DNA from: Alphaproteobacteria bacterium
Lineage (GTDB): Bacteria; Pseudomonadota; Alphaproteobacteria; SHVP01
Length of the DNA stretch: 64,000 bases
Assembly (NCBI GenBank): GCA_038148335.1
Contig: JAYQVF010000001.1
Span: forward strand, 6,476 to 70,475
Reading direction: 5' to 3'
In this document: one piece after another, positions 2,256 to 56,432 of the stretch
How the letters are laid out: the number at the start of each line of letters is the position of its first letter
Numbering within the stretch: position 1 is the stretch's first letter
Notes under the pieces: model-generated
The model's database searches: none
What the model saw: only the letters and a program-made list of their open reading frames with translations
Told to the model about the DNA's origin: nothing
Program-made: the position numbers and the translations under genes

Positions 2256-3281
2256 ATGAGCTATCGCGTGGCCGTCGTCGGTGCGACGGGCAATGTCGGC
2301 CGAGAAATGCTGAACATTCTCGAGGAGCGGCAGTTTCCCGCGAGCGAGGTCATTCCCCTCGCCTCCAACCGCTCGAAGGGCAAGGAAGTCGGCTACGGCG
2401 AGCGGACGCTCAAGGTGAAGGCGCTCGAGGACTTCGACTTCGCCGGTACCGACATCGCGCTGTTCTCGGCCGGATCGACGGTCTCCGAAGCCTTTGCGCC
2501 GGCCGCTGCAAAGGCCGGGTGCGTCGTCATCGACAACTCGTCGAAGTACCGGATGGACCCGGACGTGCCGCTGGTCGTCCCGGAAGTGAATGCCGATGCG
2601 CTTGCCGGCTATTCGCGCAAGAACATCGTCGCCAACCCGAACTGTTCGACGGCGCAACTGGTCGTCGCGCTGAAGCCGATTCACGACGTAGCGAAGATCA
2701 AGCGCGTCGTCGTCGCGACCTACCAGTCGACGTCGGGCGCCGGCAAGGACGCCATGGACGAGTTGTTCAGCCAGACCAAGGCGATCTACGTCAACGACCC
2801 GGTCGAGCCTGTCGAGTTCACCAAGCAGATTGCATTCAACGTCATCCCCCACATCGACGTCTTCATGGAAGACGGCAACACCAAGGAAGAGTGGAAGATG
2901 ATGGTCGAGACGAAGAAAATTCTCGACCCCAAGATCAAGCTGACGGCGACGTGCGTGCGGGTACCGACCTTCGTCGGCCACGCCGAGGCCGTGAACATCG
3001 AACTCGAGAAGCCGTTGTCCGCCGACGAGGCGCGTAGCATCCTGCGCGAAGCGCCGGGCCTTATGGTCGTCGACAAGCGCGAGGACGGTGGCTACATCAC
3101 GCCGATCGATTGCGTCGGCGACTACGCCACCTTCGTGAGCCGCATTCGCGAGGACGCGACGGTCGAGAACGGTCTCAACCTCTGGGTTGTTTCCGACAAC
3201 CTGCGCAAGGGCGCGGCCCTCAACGCCGTTCAGATCGCCGAGTCGCTGGTCAACCGCCACCTCGGGAAGCGGGCGGCCTAG
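2256..3281 (+). CDS. asd: aspartate-semialdehyde dehydrogenase
   Basis: 341 aa with an N-terminal NAD(P)-binding VAVVGATGNVGREML motif and the Asd-typical NPNCSTAQLVVAL motif. Confidence 0.93.
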   Translation: MSYRVAVVGATGNVGREMLNILEERQFPASEVIPLASNRSKGKEVGYGERTLKVKALEDFDFAGTDIALFSAGSTVSEAFAPAAAKAGCVVIDNSSKYRMDPDVPLVVPEVNADALAGYSRKNIVANPNCSTAQLVVALKPIHDVAKIKRVVVATYQSTSGAGKDAMDELFSQTKAIYVNDPVEPVEFTKQIAFNVIPHIDVFMEDGNTKEEWKMMVETKKILDPKIKLTATCVRVPTFVGHAEAVNIELEKPLSADEARSILREAPGLMVVDKREDGGYITPIDCVGDYATFVSRIREDATVENGLNLWVVSDNLRKGAALNAVQIAESLVNRHLGKRAA

Positions 3282-15613: not shown

Positions 15614-16024
15614 ATGTCCGTTAAGGAAGAACACCAGGCCCTGATCTACGTAATGGTTCTCATGTCGGCTGCCGACAGCGACATGACAGACAGGGAACTG
15701 TTCACCATCGGCGAAATCGTCAAGACCCTTCCGATCTTTGCGGGCATGGATCTCGAGAAACTCCCCGAGACGGCGGAGCATTGCGCCGACATGCTGTCCA
15801 AGGAGAAGGGGCTCGACGACGTTCTGGCATTCATCTCCAAGGCCCTGCCGGCCCGGCTTCACGAAACCGCCTACGCTCTCGCTTGCGATATCGCGGCGGT
15901 CGAAGGGCGCCTGCGCAGCGAGGAAATCAAGCTTCTTGAATTCCTGCGGCACCGCCTGGAAGTGGGGCGCTTGCCGGCCGCAGCGATCGAACGCGGCGCC
16001 AAGGCGCGCTACCAGAAGCTCTAG
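15614..16024 (+). CDS. TerB-like (tellurite-resistance TerB family) small protein
   Basis: 136 aa all-alpha protein; internal ATG with an upstream GAAGCGA. The LIYVMVLMSAADSDMTDRE...LACDIAAVEG pattern resembles TerB-family domains. Confidence 0.55.
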   Translation: MSVKEEHQALIYVMVLMSAADSDMTDRELFTIGEIVKTLPIFAGMDLEKLPETAEHCADMLSKEKGLDDVLAFISKALPARLHETAYALACDIAAVEGRLRSEEIKLLEFLRHRLEVGRLPAAAIERGAKARYQKL

Positions 16025-16641
16025 AGACCCTTCACGAACGAAGCCGCGGCGGCGATCGCGTCGTCGAGGTTTTGATCGTGCGTGCGGCCCGATGCCTTGC
16101 GCGGCTTCAGGTCATGATCGCCGTCTTCCAACCAGAAGACCCGAATCGACGAACTGAGGTCATAGCTTTCAACCTCTGCCCGATTGCCGAGCGCGTCGCG
16201 CGTTCCCTGCAGGACGATCGACGGGGTACGCAATGCCTGCAGGTGCTGGGTGCGCGTCTGTTGCGGACGGCCGGCGGGATGAAACGGGTAGGAAAAACAC
16301 AACCAGCCCGCGACACCCTCGGCATCGGCGATCATCGATGCGATCCTGCCGCCCATGCTTTTGCCGCCGACGACCAGCCTTGCCGGATCCCCCAGGTCGG
16401 CAATCACCGCCGACCAGGTTTCCTGCAGCACCCTGGCGCGGTCGGGCCCGCGCCGCGTGCCCTCGGTCCGCCGTTTCGCCATATAGGGAAATTCAAAGCG
16501 CACCACGCGCAGGCCCGACGCGGCCAGTCCCTGGGCAACCCGCGCCATGAAGGGCGAATCCATGGGTGCACCGGCGCCGTGCGCCAGAACGACAGTCCTC
16601 GCGGCCTTAGGCCCATCGATCAGGTAGTCGGTCATCGCCAT
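16021..16641 (-). CDS. alpha/beta-fold hydrolase (COG3571/KANL3-like)
   Basis: 206 aa with VVLAHGAGAPMDS and the nucleophile elbow GGKSMGG; starts 12 nt downstream of tRNA-Gly on the same strand. Confidence 0.7.
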   Translation of the reverse strand: MAMTDYLIDGPKAARTVVLAHGAGAPMDSPFMARVAQGLAASGLRVVRFEFPYMAKRRTEGTRRGPDRARVLQETWSAVIADLGDPARLVVGGKSMGGRIASMIADAEGVAGWLCFSYPFHPAGRPQQTRTQHLQALRTPSIVLQGTRDALGNRAEVESYDLSSSIRVFWLEDGDHDLKPRKASGRTHDQNLDDAIAAAASFVKGL

Positions 16642-16652
16642 GGCAGAGAGAT

Positions 16653-16726
16653 TGGAGCGGGTGAAGGGAATCGAACCCTCGTCGTAAGCTTGGGAAGCTT
16701 CTGCTCTACCATTGAGCTACACCCGC
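16653..16726 (-). tRNA. tRNA-Gly (anticodon CCC)
   Basis: The reverse complement gives GCGGGTGTAGCTCAATGGTAGAGCAGAAGCTTCCCAAGCTTACGACGAGGGTTCGATTCCCTTCACCCGCTCCA. This is a cloverleaf with a TTCCCAA anticodon loop, a GGTTCGATTCC T-arm and encoded CCA; it is nearly identical to E. coli tRNA-Gly(CCC). Confidence 0.92.
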
Positions 16727-16871
16727 GCTGGCCGGATTCTCTGGAGAGATTTCAGGAAAATCAAGCCGTCACGGCGGTCATTCACGGGGTTCCCAATTGA
16801 CAGGGGCGGCCGGTAACGAAATCGTCGCCCCTGGCATCGAATCAGCGCAGACCCCATCCGCCGAAGGACCC

Positions 16872-17822
16872 ATGGCGACCATCGAACGCGACCTACCGGC
16901 TACCATGCCACACTTTGCCGATCCTCATGTTACGGCGGATGGTAGCGAACGCGCGTACGTTCGCCTCACGGCGCTCGAAACGCTTTGGTTCAATACCGGG
17001 ACGCTGTGCAACCTGACATGCACTCACTGCTACATCGAATCGAGCCCGACCAACGACCGTTTGGCCTACATCACGGCAGACGAAGTCGCCGCCTTCCTCG
17101 ACGAGATTCGGAGCCGAGACCTGCCGACAAGGGAGATCGGCCTGACAGGCGGCGAGCCGTTCATGAATCCCGATATCGCGATCATTCTCGACGAAGCCCT
17201 GTCGCGAGGGTTTGATGTTCTCGTGCTGACGAACGCGATGACGCCCATGCGCCATCATCGCCGTACCTTGACGCGACTGCAGGAAAACTATGGGCGAGCG
17301 CTCGCCCTGCGGGTTTCTCTGGATCACTACACCCGGGAGCGGCATGAGAGCGAACGCGGATCGCCGACGTGGGATCGCACCCTTGACGGCTTGAAGTGGC
17401 TTGCGCAAAGCGGCTTCAACGTCGCCGTCGCGACGAGGACGCTTTGGGGCGACCAAGAACCCGTCCTGAGACAGGGTTTCGCCGACCTGTTCCGCGCGCA
17501 CGGAATCGAGATCGAGGCGCAGGACCCGACACGCCTCGTCGTCTTTCCCGAGATGGACGCAACGACGCCGGTTCCGGAAATCACAACCGCGTGCTGGTCG
17601 ATCCTCGACGTCAATCCCGACGCGATGATGTGCGCGACCTCGCGCATGGTCGTGAAGCGGAAAGGTGCCACCGCCCCCGCCGTCGTTGCCTGCACCCTCC
17701 TGCCCTACGATCAGCAATTCGAGCTTGGCGGCACGCTCGCCGAAAGCGCTGACGAGGTTCGCCTCAATCACCCGCACTGCGCCAAGTTCTGCGTCCTCGG
17801 CGGCGGCTCCTGCGGGGCCTGA
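16872..17822 (+). CDS. radical SAM protein with C-terminal Cys-rich domain (rSAM/Cys-rich, ArsS-like family)
   Basis: CNLTCTHC matches CxxxCxxC, followed by the GGEPF glycine-rich SAM motif and a Cys-rich tail (CAKFCVLGGGSCGA). The ORF opens at 16797; start assigned to the ATG at 16872 (MATIERD) and is uncertain. Confidence 0.7.
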   Translation: MATIERDLPATMPHFADPHVTADGSERAYVRLTALETLWFNTGTLCNLTCTHCYIESSPTNDRLAYITADEVAAFLDEIRSRDLPTREIGLTGGEPFMNPDIAIILDEALSRGFDVLVLTNAMTPMRHHRRTLTRLQENYGRALALRVSLDHYTRERHESERGSPTWDRTLDGLKWLAQSGFNVAVATRTLWGDQEPVLRQGFADLFRAHGIEIEAQDPTRLVVFPEMDATTPVPEITTACWSILDVNPDAMMCATSRMVVKRKGATAPAVVACTLLPYDQQFELGGTLAESADEVRLNHPHCAKFCVLGGGSCGA

Positions 17823-17871
17823 AACCGGCATTCGCCCTTGACGCAACCGGGCGTAAAGCGTAGTTAGCCCG

Positions 17872-17960
17872 CGTGGTGATTTGAGCCGACCGGCTTGCGG
17901 CCACGTAAAAGAAGCAGCTTAAAAGGTCGGAGCGACAACCCGGCTCCTGCCGGGTTTTTT
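17872..17960 (+). ncRNA. candidate SAM-II-type riboswitch (metA/metZ leader) with intrinsic-terminator expression platform
   Basis: GUGAUUUGAGCCGACCGGCUUGCGGCCACGUAAAAGAAGCAGCUUAAAAGG shows a GCUUGC-loop hairpin and an A-rich AAAAG...GCU.AAAAGG tail characteristic of SAM-II. It is followed by the hairpin CCCGGC-UCCU-GCCGGG (17939..17954) and a U6 tract at 17955..17960, 15 nt before the metZ ATG. Confidence 0.5.
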
Positions 17961-17975
17961 GTTGGGAGCTGGACA

Positions 17976-19178
17976 ATGGCCGACACAGGGAAACGCAAGG
18001 ACTCGACACGCTGGCGGCGGCAGACGCTCGCGGTGCGCGGCGGGCAATCACGCTCGAATTTCGGCGAAACGAGCGAGCCGATCTATCTGACCTCCGGTTA
18101 CGTCTACGACGCTGCCGAGCAGGCGGAGGCGCGGTTCAAGGGACAGGACGACGGGTTCATCTATTCACGGTTCTCCAATCCGACCGTCGCCACCTTCGAG
18201 GAACGTATCGCAGCCATCGAGGGCGCCGAACGCGCAATGGCGACCGCAACCGGGATGGCCGCGGTGAATGCCGCGCTGATGTGCCAGCTGAAAGCCGGCG
18301 ATCACGTCGTCTCGGCGCGGGCACTCTTCGGGTCTTGCCGCTACATCGTCGACGAAATCTTGCCGCGCTTCGGCGTCGAGGTGACCCTGGTCGACGGCGG
18401 CGACCTCGATCAATGGAAAGCGGCGCTGCGTTCCACGACAGTGTGCGGCTTTCTCGAGACGCCTTCCAACCCGATGCTCGACATCGTCGACCTGCAGGGG
18501 GTTGCCAATATCCTCCACGCCGCAGGCGCGCGCCTTGTCGTCGACAACGCCTTCGCCACGCCGGCGCTGCAGCGGCCCGGCGAGTTCGGCGCCGACATCG
18601 TCGTCTACTCCGCAACCAAGCATATCGACGGCCAGGGCCGTTGCCTGGGCGGCGTCGTTCTCGCCAGCGATTCGTTCATCGAGGACACGCTGAAGCCCTA
18701 TCTCAGACATACCGGACCGGCGTTGAGCCCATTCAACGCCTGGGTCATGCTGAAGGGGCTCGAGACGCTGAACCTACGTGTGGAGCGGCACTGCGCCTCG
18801 GCCGCGGCGATTACCGACTATCTTGCCAAACACGGCAAGGTGTCGCGCGTGATCTATCCGTTTCTCGCCAGTCACCCCGGCAATACGCTGGCGCGCAAGC
18901 AGATGAGCGCCGGCGGTGGCATCATCACCTTCGATATCGAAGGGGGAAAGGAAGCAGCGTTCCGCTTTCTCAATGCCCTGAAGATCGTCGATATTTCCAA
19001 CAACCTCGGCGATTCGAAGAGCCTGATTACGCATCCGGCTACCACAACCCATCAACGGGTCGACGAGGCGGAGCGGCTGGCCCTAGGAATTCTGCCGACG
19101 ACCGTGCGCCTTTCGGTCGGACTTGAGGATGTGGATGATCTGATGGACGATATCGACCAGGCGCTGGCGGCCTGCTAG
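17976..19178 (+). CDS. metZ: O-succinylhomoserine sulfhydrylase
   Basis: ATG at 17976 preceded by GGGAG. Cys/Met-metabolism PLP enzyme with SNP...FE motifs and the PLP-Lys region ([10 protein letters not shown]). Confidence 0.88.
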
Positions 19179-19216
19179 CCGTCGGTGCCGCAGCGTTCAT
19201 TTCGTGGGCCGGTAAC

Positions 19217-19609
19217 ATGTACGACCGTACGACGCGCGGTATCCGCATCCGGGTCGAACCGTTCTATCTCGAGGATCAGTCGACGCCGGATCAGGACCAC
19301 TACGTCTGGGCCTATCGCGTCAAGATCGAGAACACCGGGATGGAGCGGGTCCAGTTGCTGAACCGCTATTGGAAGATCACGGACGCCGCCGGACGGATCA
19401 AGGAAGTGCGCGGACCCGGCGTCGTCGGCGAGCAGCCCGTACTGGACCCTGGTGAATCGTTCGAGTACACCAGCGGCACGCCGTTGACGACACCGTCGGG
19501 GATCATGGTCGGAAGCTACGAGATGACCACCGACCGGGGCGACACGTTTCCGGTCGATATTCCCGCGTTCTCTCTCGACAGCCCTCACGAGCAATCGACG
19601 CTCAACTAG
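19217..19609 (+). CDS. apaG: ApaG domain protein
   Basis: 130 aa with the GIRIRVEP...[11 protein letters not shown] pattern typical of ApaG/DUF525. Confidence 0.85.
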
Positions 19610-19635
19610 CGCGAACCGCCGCAAAGGAAGCCATC

Positions 19636-20259
19636 GTGGACAAGCCAATGAAGGAAGGAGTCGGTTCGTCGCAAGGTCGGCCGAGTCGGGAAGAAGCCGA
19701 AGAGGCCGTCCGTACGCTGCTGCGCTATGCCGGCGACGACGTCGAACGCGAAGGATTGATCGACACGCCCGCCCGGGTTGTCCGGTCGTACGACGAGTTT
19801 TTCGCCGGCTACCAGGACGACGCCATCGAATACCTGCAGCGGACCTTCGAGGAAACCGATGGCTACGACGAAATGGTCGTGCTGCGCGACATCCGCGTCG
19901 AATCGCATTGCGAGCATCACATGCTGCCCATCATTGGCCGCGCGCATGTCGGCTATATGCCCAACAACCGCGTTGTCGGCATCAGCAAGCTTGCCCGCGT
20001 CGTCGATGCCTATGCCAAGCGCCTGCAGGTGCAGGAAAAGATGACCGCGCAGATTGCGACCTGCATCGACAGCGTGCTGCGTCCCAAGGGAGTGGCCGTG
20101 GTCATCGACGCCGCACACCAATGCATGACCATGCGCGGCGTGCACAAGCCGGGCGTCAGCATGGTCACCAGCCACATGATCGGTGCCTTTCGCGACGATG
20201 CCACGACGCGGCGCGAATTCCTGAATATCATCAGTAGCCCGTCGAACCAGTCCGGTTAG
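19636..20259 (+). CDS. folE: GTP cyclohydrolase I
   Basis: 207 aa with the CEHHMLP and VGYMPN motifs; GTG start with AGGAAG upstream. Confidence 0.93.
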
Positions 20260-20287
20260 GGACGGTCCGGCGCGCGAGGCTCGTGCG

Positions 20288-21736
20288 GTGATCGAAGCCC
20301 GACCCATCCTCTTCTTTCTCGGGCTGCTGCTGATCGCGCTGGCCGCGGCGATGCTCGTGCCTGCCGCCGTCGATGCGGCCAACGCGCATCCGGACTGGCA
20401 GGCGTTCCTCGGCGGCGCGGCGGTGTGTCTGTTCTTCGGCGGCAGCTGCGTCCTGACCACGCGCGGCGCCTGGAAGACGCTTTCCGTCCGGCAGAGCTTC
20501 GTCCTCACCGTCGTCAGTTGGGTCCTGCTGACGGCCTTCGCCGCCCTGCCGTTCCGCTTTGCGGGCCTCGACCTCAACTACGCCAGCGCCTTCTTCGAGG
20601 CGATGTCGGGCATCACGACCACGGGATCGACGACGCTGGTCGGTCTCGACAACGCGCCACCCGGGGTGCTGCTGTGGCGGGCAATGCTCCAGTGGCTCGG
20701 CGGCATCGGCTTCGTAGTACTCGCGATTGCGGTTCTGCCGATGCTGCAGGTCGGCGGCAACCAGCTTTTTCGCACTGAGTTCAGCGATCCCTCGGGCAAG
20801 ACGACCCCTCGGATCGCCTCCCTGGCGGCCGGCATCGGTTTGGTCTACGCGGGCGCGACGTTTGCCTGTTTCGTCGCCTACTGGGCCGCCGGCATGGGGT
20901 CCTTCGAGGCGATCGCCCATGCGATGACCACGATCGCCACCGGCGGATTTTCGACCGCGGACGCGTCGATCGGGCATTTCGCCAGCCCGCCGATCGAGAT
21001 GATCGCAACACTCTTCATGATCGTCGGCAGCCTGCCCTTCACCATGCTGCTGATCGCAGCGCGCGGCGATCCCTTGCGGATGATCCGCAGCAGCCAGGTC
21101 CAGTGGTTCATCGGTTTCCTTGCCATCGGCACCCTGACGATGGCGGCGTGGCAAATTGCGGTGAACGACGTTCAGATCCTTCGCGCACTGCGCACGGCGG
21201 CCTTCAACGTCACCTCGATCATCACCGGCACTGGCTATGCGAGCGAAGACTACTGGCGCTGGGGCACATTCCCCGGGGTCGCCTTCCTATTCTTCATGTT
21301 CGTCGGCGGCTGCGCCGGGTCGACCTCGTGCAGCGTGAAGATATTCCGCTATCAGGTTCTCTTTCTCGCGCTCAAGACCCAGCTTGAGCGTTTGCTGCGA
21401 CCGCACCGCGTCTATGTGCCGCACTACGACGGCAAGCCGCTTCCCGATTCGGTGACCGATTCGGTCTTTGCCTTCTTCTTTCTGTTCCTTCTGGTCTTTG
21501 CTCTGCTGGCCTTTGCCCTGTCTCTCCTGGGCCTCGATTTCGTGACCAGCGTTTCGAGCGCAGCGACCGCCATCACCAATGTCGGCCCCGGCCTGGGGTC
21601 GATCGTCGGCCCGGCGGGCACCTTCGCCGAGCTGTCAGACGGTGCAAAATGGCTGCTTTCACTGGGGATGCTGCTTGGACGGCTGGAGGTGTTTACAGTA
21701 GTCGTCCTGTTTACCAGCAAATTCTGGCGCGTCTGA
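20288..21736 (+). CDS. trkH: TrkH-family potassium uptake protein
   Basis: 482 aa polytopic membrane protein with repeated TTGS/TGxG selectivity-filter-like motifs (GITTTGSTT, TGTGYAS, ATGGFS). Confidence 0.9.
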   Translation: MIEARPILFFLGLLLIALAAAMLVPAAVDAANAHPDWQAFLGGAAVCLFFGGSCVLTTRGAWKTLSVRQSFVLTVVSWVLLTAFAALPFRFAGLDLNYASAFFEAMSGITTTGSTTLVGLDNAPPGVLLWRAMLQWLGGIGFVVLAIAVLPMLQVGGNQLFRTEFSDPSGKTTPRIASLAAGIGLVYAGATFACFVAYWAAGMGSFEAIAHAMTTIATGGFSTADASIGHFASPPIEMIATLFMIVGSLPFTMLLIAARGDPLRMIRSSQVQWFIGFLAIGTLTMAAWQIAVNDVQILRALRTAAFNVTSIITGTGYASEDYWRWGTFPGVAFLFFMFVGGCAGSTSCSVKIFRYQVLFLALKTQLERLLRPHRVYVPHYDGKPLPDSVTDSVFAFFFLFLLVFALLAFALSLLGLDFVTSVSSAATAITNVGPGLGSIVGPAGTFAELSDGAKWLLSLGMLLGRLEVFTVVVLFTSKFWRV

Positions 21737-31113: not shown

Positions 31114-31190
31114 TGGCGCGCCTGGGAAGATTCGAACTCCCGACCCCTAGATTCGTAGTCTAGTGCTCTATCCAGCTGAGCTACAGGCGC
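31114..31190 (-). tRNA. tRNA-Arg (anticodon ACG)
   Basis: The reverse complement gives GCGCCTGTAGCTCAGCTGGATAGAGCACTAGACTACGAATCTAGGGGTCGGGAGTTCGAATCTTCCCAGGCGCGCCA. Anticodon loop CTACGAA; close to E. coli tRNA-Arg(ACG). Confidence 0.92.
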
Positions 31191-56326: not shown

Positions 56327-56432
56327 CAGGCGGGAGGTTGGTTAGGTGACCCGGCAGCATCCCGTTACGGCTGCTTCCTTCCGGACCTGACCGGGTTGGC
56401 GAGCGCTCCCGTCCACCGCCAACCTCCCGGGC
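56327..56432 (-). ncRNA. ffs: signal recognition particle RNA (4.5S RNA)
   Basis: Minus strand has GGUCAGGUCCGGAAGGAAGCAGC (the conserved domain IV motif) flanked by a long closing helix GGGAGGUUGG...CCAACCUCCC. Located directly upstream of dnaX. Confidence 0.8.

Follow-up and report, generated by a model that had tools for sequence, protein, structure and literature searches.

Organization of the metZ locus

The stretch of DNA analyzed here (64,000 nucleotides; hereafter, the window) carries metZ, which encodes an O-succinylhomoserine sulfhydrylase and matched two MetZ family models above their cut-offs (Table 1). The ORF upstream of metZ contains a Radical_SAM domain, as revealed by a domain search, and the gap between its stop at 17822 and the metZ ATG at 17976 is 153 nt. 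The original prediction, made from the sequence alone, had described a radical-SAM gene followed by a gap of ca. 150 nt, and the sequence features that it located in this gap were all present: the string that it quoted begins at 17876, the hairpin lies at 17939–17954, and the U6 tract extends to 17960.

Table 1 Features of the metZ leader and metZ in the window.
Feature	Position	Strand	Evidence or description
Promoter-like element	17838..17866	+	−35 TTGACG 17838–43, 17-nt spacer, −10 TAGTTA 17861–66; read from sequence
RF00521 (SAM_alpha/SAM-II), full match	17863..17942	+	66.7 bits, gathering score 36, E 8.4e-13, model positions 1–79 of 79
P1 hairpin	17872..17905	+	CGUGGU 17872–77 with GCCACG 17900–05; cmscan structure line; pairs CG, GC, UA, GC, GC, UG
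P2 pseudoknot, 5′ strand	17886..17891	+	CCGACC, inside P1 loop; six Watson-Crick pairs with 17925–30; duplex ca. −12 kcal/mol
P2 pseudoknot, 3′ strand	17925..17930	+	GGUCGG; proposed switching segment; pairs with 17886–91 or with terminator sequences
Candidate antiterminator hairpin(s)	17925..17951	+	Three possible registers; energies computed, register used inferred
Family-like antiterminator register	17925–30 with 17940–45	+	GGUCGG/CCGGCU; −7.1 kcal/mol
Second antiterminator register	17929–33 with 17943–47	+	GGAGC/GCUCC; −8.6 kcal/mol
Second register with outer extension	adds 17925–27 with 17949–51	+	GGAGC/GCUCC plus extension; −13.2 kcal/mol
Intrinsic terminator	17937..17960	+	8-bp stem AACCCGGC/GCCGGGUU 17937–44/17949–56, loop UCCU, U6 17955–60; scan; −15.4 kcal/mol
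Shine-Dalgarno sequence and metZ start codon	17965..17978	+	GGGAG 17965–69, ATG 17976–78; sequence; both 3′ of the terminator and outside the aptamer
metZ (putative regulated gene)	17976..19178	+	O-succinylhomoserine sulfhydrylase, 400 aa; TIGR01325 586.8 bits (cut-off 510); NF006003 541 bits (cut-off 522)

The longest metZ ORF listed for the window (17895–19178, plus strand, 427 aa) begins with a TTG at 17895, which falls within the aptamer described below. The true start of metZ is almost certainly the ATG at 17976, which yields the 400-aa protein, because the Shine-Dalgarno (SD) sequence GGGAG is found 7 nt upstream of it and the MetZ family models align from residues 7–16 of the protein starting there. 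Automatic annotation of metZ by its longest ORF would absorb the riboswitch.

For comparison, a MetZ protein search with one genome per species returned 80 loci (numbered with the prefix L), all from alphaproteobacteria or from MAGs labelled only Pseudomonadota/Proteobacteria; Sinorhizobium was not among them. The closest metZ locus was that of an uncultured alphaproteobacterial MAG with 84% amino-acid identity. The other best matches (62–68% identity) included Parvibaculum, Tepidicaulis, and Rhodobiaceae bacteria. At the metZ start, the gttgggag...ATG arrangement of the window recurs in L001, the closest relative.

The radical-SAM gene (16797–17822, plus strand) belongs to an unassigned subfamily and gave its best NCBIfam match to the Rv1681 family with 107 bits, far under the cut-off of 380 bits. 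Judging from the homology with its relatives, which begins around residues 27–40 of the listed ORF, the gene probably starts later than the TTG at 16797. A radical-SAM gene is also located directly 5′ of the riboswitch in L001, L004, L005, L008, L014, L016, L034, L047, and L002. The terminator scan found no terminator-like site between the stop of the radical-SAM gene and the riboswitch. Transcripts of this gene would therefore run into the putative SAM-controlled terminator described below.

Further neighbors of metZ encode a class-I lysyl-tRNA synthetase (PF01921; 13929–15491, minus strand), an Abhydrolase_11 protein (16021–16641, minus strand), and a TrkH cation transporter (20288–21736, plus strand). 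Two minus-strand ORFs directly after metZ (19175–19648 and 19606–20577) showed no match to a Pfam or NCBIfam family and may be spurious, the DNA being GC-rich. When the whole window was scanned with the 4227 families of Rfam 15, four matches above the gathering scores were obtained. Besides the SAM-II element, the scan yielded tRNA genes at 16656–16726 (minus strand, 69.3 bits) and 31117–31190 (minus strand, 66.3 bits) and a bacterial small SRP RNA at 56330–56427 (minus strand, 58.3 bits). Local synteny is suggested by L004 and L010, where a tRNA gene also lies ca. 1–2.5 kb before metZ.

A SAM-II aptamer precedes metZ

The original prediction had placed a SAM-II-like element before metZ. The RF00521 model was matched from end to end, its score of 66.7 bits (gathering score, 36) being far above chance. 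In contrast, SAM-V (RF01826), which is typical of Pelagibacter-like marine bacteria, gave no match at E ≤ 1 in a sensitive Rfam rescan of 17700–18100. By its covariance-model match, the window element is thus a genuine SAM-II aptamer, not merely a SAM-II-like one. The same rescan returned a weak istR match (22.3 bits; gathering score, 45), which was rejected as a terminator-driven false positive.

P1 encloses a loop that contains GAUUUG, the P2 5′ strand, and GGCUUGC. The conserved core consists of the U-rich L1 GAUUU, GGCUUGC, and the A-rich GCU-AAAA tail. In the cmscan alignment, all upper-case consensus positions were matched except for an A-to-U change at 17920, and the three core segments formed invariant columns across 36 leaders. 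These nucleotides are those of the SAM pocket and the triplex of SAM-II, the individual SAM contacts being assigned from the literature. The metZ start is located on the same strand as the aptamer, 46 nt past the end of P2.

Around 17920, the aptamer of the window reads GCUUAAAA, whereas nearly all relatives and the Rfam consensus read GCUAAAA(A). The U is common only to L001; the change can be read as a single inserted or substituted base preceding the A-run and carries a small score cost. Additionally, a ViennaRNA fold without the pseudoknot contained a small hairpin within the P1 loop (UGAGCC/GGCUUG, 17882–17897), covering CC 17886–87 of the P2 5′ strand. This modelled hairpin would be a second competitor to P2 and may represent the 'hairpin state' that SAM-II is described to adopt without ligand.

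SAM-II aptamers were found in the same position at metZ in at least 54 distinct sequences among the 80 loci using a looser regular expression. The first expression for the aptamer core recognized 34 of the 80 loci, which is an undercount: of 20 loci missed by it, 15 contained the family according to Rfam. Over 36 distinct leaders, 96.8% of the P1 cells were paired, with compensatory changes at 2 pairs. The four in-register columns of P2 were 100% paired in 36 leaders, and one of these pairs was A-U in 20, G-C in 13, and G-U in 3 leaders with no broken cell; the count covers 4 of the 6 P2 pairs, since the MAFFT alignment used (A2, trimmed at the P2 3′ end) shifted the first two. P1 and the four P2 pairs were jointly 98.1% paired over 36 distinct aptamers compared with 17–45% in slid registers, and none of 500 shuffles reached the observed covariation score. 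A whole-leader MAFFT alignment (A1), in which the P2 3′ strand and the terminators were out of register, was not used for pair counts.

Promoter-like element of the metZ leader

A promoter-like element is present between the radical-SAM gene and the aptamer (Table 1). Its −10 box ends 5 nt before P1; therefore, the RNA is predicted to begin at the foot of P1, at about 17872–17874, with the first bases of this helix. A TTGAC box was found 34–43 nt 5′ of P1 in 29 of 32 related metZ leaders. A strict consensus promoter scan made no call on TTGACG-N17-TAGTTA because the −10 box ends in A. In the paper that described the class, the promoter is usually located a few nt before P1 (Corbino 2005, PMC1273637). 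As read from its sequence, the leader is a self-contained unit of promoter, aptamer, terminator, SD sequence, and gene.

Terminator and candidate antiterminator

The terminator has a CCCGGC/GCCGGG core at 17939–17944/17949–17954, and its U6 tract ends 15 nt before the ATG at 17976. As the original prediction had reasoned, a promoter could not be accommodated in these 15 nt, and metZ must therefore be transcribed through the hairpin. A generic terminator scan of a 3-kb region found 3 terminators versus 2.3 expected, which is not above chance. The significance of the hairpin thus rests on its position and its conservation in relatives. An automatic rule recognized a hairpin directly followed by a U-run in the region from P2 to the start codon for 36 of 48 leaders; the number rises to ca. 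38 when L047 and L061, whose terminators have a 2-nt spacer rejected by the rule, are added by eye.

In the window, the candidate antiterminator was the minimum free energy (MFE) structure of nascent RNAs ending at 17948–17952, and the terminator took over from 17954 on. All three antiterminator registers are weaker than the terminator (−7.1, −8.6, or −13.2 versus −15.4 kcal/mol), and the strongest one, GGAGC/GCUCC, is unlike the register of most relatives. When the full leader was modelled at equilibrium with no ligand, the terminator was ca. 100% formed whether or not P2 was blocked. Since the terminator dominates at equilibrium, any SAM dependence in the window must be kinetic. According to these folding models, default read-through into metZ may be low. 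The weak antiterminator is the main uncertainty about the performance of the switch; the identity of the element is unaffected by it.

The complementarity of the P2 3′ strand to the terminator arm was also compared with shuffled sequences, in which the 12 nt after the A-run were shuffled and the duplex with the terminator 5′ arm was recomputed. The window gave p = 0.35, p ≤ 0.05 was obtained in only 9 of 30 leaders, and the median z was −0.9. This test is uninformative because any G-rich 12-mer pairs with the C-rich arm.

When nascent RNAs of the relatives were folded over the segment that begins with the P2 3′ strand and ends with the terminator loop, a hairpin resulted that pairs GGYCGG with the terminator 5′ arm CCGRYC. 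Its inner helices vary yet remain complementary (GGC/GCC, GGU/ACC, GUC/GAC, GGUU/AACC, GGG/CCC, GGUUC/GAACC, GGUUUU/AAAACC, and CUGAG/CUCAG). The energies of this hairpin range from −9 to −20 kcal/mol versus −10 to −31 kcal/mol for the terminators, and in L005, L019, L033, and L080, it was still the MFE structure with the whole terminator present. In terms of these folds, the hairpin is the expected antiterminator of a classical OFF switch. Support for the antiterminator therefore comes from the compensatory inner helices of the relatives, not from the window itself.

About 10 of the 48 leaders, mostly of Ancylobacter, Xanthobacter, Bosea, and Labrys types, have no U-run. A SAM-II aptamer before metZ with no U-run was seen in L015, L018, L024, L029, L038, and L040 (at about 2900–3000 in each) and also in L020, L032, and L036. 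In these relatives (Ancylobacter, Bosea, Labrys, and similar), a long hairpin is followed by ...CCCCGGU...ACCGGAGCCGCC-AUG, and the CCCCGGU could pair with the P2 3′ strand or the SD sequence. From their sequences, these leaders look like SD-sequestering, translational platforms. Thus, both platform types apparently occur behind one aptamer and one gene among orthologous metZ leaders.

Proposed mechanism and alternative explanations

The element is very probably a standard SAM-II (RF00521) riboswitch that works as a transcriptional OFF switch on metZ. Transcription would start right at P1 from the sigma-70-type promoter at 17838–17866. When SAM is abundant, it would bind the H-type pseudoknot aptamer and lock GGUCGG (17925–30) onto CCGACC (17886–91). 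With P2 locked, the terminator hairpin (17937–56) would be free to form ahead of U6, and the polymerase would stop at about 17958–17961, 15 nt short of the metZ start, releasing a leader RNA of ca. 89 nt. When SAM is scarce, P2 would be open, and GGUCGG with the adjacent AGC would pair with the emerging terminator sequences (17940–51); this antiterminator pairing would delay terminator formation and permit read-through into metZ.

The sequences themselves display the aptamer identity, the complementarity and covariation of P1 and P2, the conservation of promoter and terminator, and the mutually exclusive pairings. For the window, we infer that SAM binds, where transcription begins, that termination responds to SAM, and which antiterminator register is used. 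Among the points in favor of an OFF switch is that the downstream gene encodes a methionine-biosynthesis enzyme, the canonical target of SAM-II. A conditional attenuator, deduced in the original prediction from an aptamer followed by a hairpin and U6 through which metZ is read, remains the best reading of this arrangement.

The position of the hairpin behind the radical-SAM gene raises another explanation, in which the hairpin and U6 are a constitutive terminator that mainly ends the radical-SAM transcript, while the aptamer acts otherwise (e.g., on mRNA stability) or is merely adjacent. Read-through from the radical-SAM gene would indeed meet this hairpin, no other terminator-like site being found after 17822, and the terminator forms at equilibrium whatever the state of P2. 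Moreover, SAM-II pseudoknots also stabilize RNA (Scheuer 2022, PMC9373788). However, a conserved promoter separates the radical-SAM gene from the aptamer, and the relatives keep a terminator-competing helix with compensatory changes. A purely constitutive terminator, with its U-tract only 15 nt from the ATG, would silence metZ. In addition, a radical-SAM gene is directly upstream in only ca. 9 of the 80 loci, and the aptamer–terminator–metZ module occurs in ca. 70 loci without this gene directly upstream, indicating that the hairpin belongs to the metZ leader. A constitutive terminator is therefore very unlikely. Termination of the radical-SAM transcript was rejected as the main role of the hairpin on two of these grounds, the conserved promoter and the lacking synteny.

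Control could instead be partly or wholly translational. GCUCCU at 17943–48 can pair with the SD region GGGAGC (ca. 17964–70), and this pairing could mask the ribosome-binding site in read-through transcripts depending on the aptamer state. The complementarity of GCUCC and GGAGC is present in the sequence, GGAGC occurring twice (17929–33 and, in the SD region, 17966–70). About 10 related metZ leaders without a U-run look SD-sequestering, and the metA SAM-II riboswitch of Sinorhizobium meliloti combines a terminator with translational control (PMC9373788). Against this, the SD sequence is 35 nt past the P2 3′ strand and not in the pseudoknot. Because it lies 3′ of the terminator and outside the aptamer, direct occlusion by the pseudoknot is impossible here. 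The bases that would pair with the SD region also sit within the far more stable terminator stem, and the pairing is degraded in L001 (GCUCUU versus GGGAGA). Translational control of this kind is very unlikely; the double complementarity of GGAGC to GCUCC(U) could be chance or a secondary SD-masking interaction. A further helix in the full-leader MFE structure, CAGCUU/GAGCUG (17915–20 with 17966–71), would mask the SD sequence in the ligand-free state. It was rejected as chance, having the wrong regulatory sign and being absent from L001.

A two-part reading was also considered, given that the terminator forms at equilibrium regardless of the aptamer and that no separate terminator follows the radical-SAM gene. 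Here, the leader would produce a stable, SAM-bound RNA of ca. 89 nt with a trans function, as speculated for the leader RNA RZ of S. meliloti, and would also provide a shared, SAM-tuned end for the radical-SAM transcript. We give this combination very little credence; if true, the shared transcript end would couple the gene of a SAM-consuming enzyme to methionine synthesis. That the terminated leader RNA of ca. 89 nt is the main product, acting in trans as a small RNA with metZ control secondary, is hardly probable at all: in S. meliloti, the leader RNAs RZ and RA2 accumulate under high SAM, which also stabilizes them, a possible trans function was raised by the authors (PMC9373788), and a terminator dominant at equilibrium would end most transcripts short, but no SAM-II leader RNA is known to have a target or to act in trans, no MetK interaction was seen in S. 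meliloti (PMC9373788), and the window offers no hint of a target, its conserved parts being exactly the aptamer and the expression platform.

Taking the transcriptional OFF switch as the preferred reading, the element marks metZ as SAM-repressed in an uncultured alphaproteobacterium, a finding of little importance other than for correct annotation; the element would be labelled as SAM-II in any Rfam-based annotation. Of mild residual interest are the weak antiterminator, the radical-SAM gene with no separate terminator, and the coexistence of two platform types. The ca. 50 orthologous metZ leaders, mostly with a terminator and in a minority SD-sequestering, are a resource on platform exchange behind one aptamer.

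Comparison with known SAM riboswitches

Terminators after the SAM-II aptamer were already reported when the class was described (Corbino 2005, PMC1273637), and they are the commonest SAM-II expression platform (Barrick and Breaker 2007, PMC2258182). The original prediction had regarded a terminating SAM-II element as a notable variant of a translational class. This view does not hold, given the literature and the ca. 38 of 48 metZ leaders with a terminator here. By its sequence, the window riboswitch is of an already known type, shows the most frequent architecture of a family known since 2005, and is not a variant. The useful outcome is accordingly a correction, namely that terminator-coupled SAM-II is the majority form.

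The window element agrees with the RF00521 'metA motif' (Corbino 2005, PMC1273637) in its full-length match, in P1 and P2, and in the conserved GAUUUG, GGCUUGC, and GCU-A-rich segments. It further shares with this family a promoter just before P1, a terminator between P2 and the ORF, a methionine-biosynthesis gene, and an alphaproteobacterial host. Nothing substantial differs; the window has U at 17920 and an antiterminator weaker than that of most relatives.

The metZ riboswitch of S. meliloti, in which SAM binding is predicted to lead to a Rho-independent terminator (Scheuer 2022, PMC9373788), has the same gene, aptamer class, and predicted expression platform. Its predicted terminated product is ca. 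100 nt compared with ca. 89 nt in the window, and the organism is different. The S. meliloti metZ leader RNA, RZ (ca. 100 nt), was seen on Northern blots; in rich medium, its abundance and stability were higher (PMC9373788). The evidence in S. meliloti is at the level of Northern blots and reporters; the literature cited here contained no direct in vitro demonstration that a SAM-II element terminates transcription in a SAM-dependent manner.

SAM-V (RF01826) has a related SAM-binding architecture of a pseudoknot and a triplex, but its covariance model has no match at E ≤ 1 in 17700–18100 of the window; it is described as translational (PMC6061858).

Reviews class SAM-II under direct occlusion, following the metX case from the Sargasso Sea (PMC10907184). 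This metX element, a single structurally studied example from which the translational picture derives, is the best-studied SAM-II case, not the commonest, and the original prediction had taken its translational mode as the norm. The window element and the Sargasso Sea metX SAM-II (crystal structure 2QWY; PMC10907184) share the aptamer class and the H-type pseudoknot stabilized by SAM. In metX, the ribosome-binding site is inside the P2 3′ strand and is directly occluded, whereas the SD sequence of the window is 35 nt past P2 and beyond the terminator; therefore, the predicted read-out in the window is termination.
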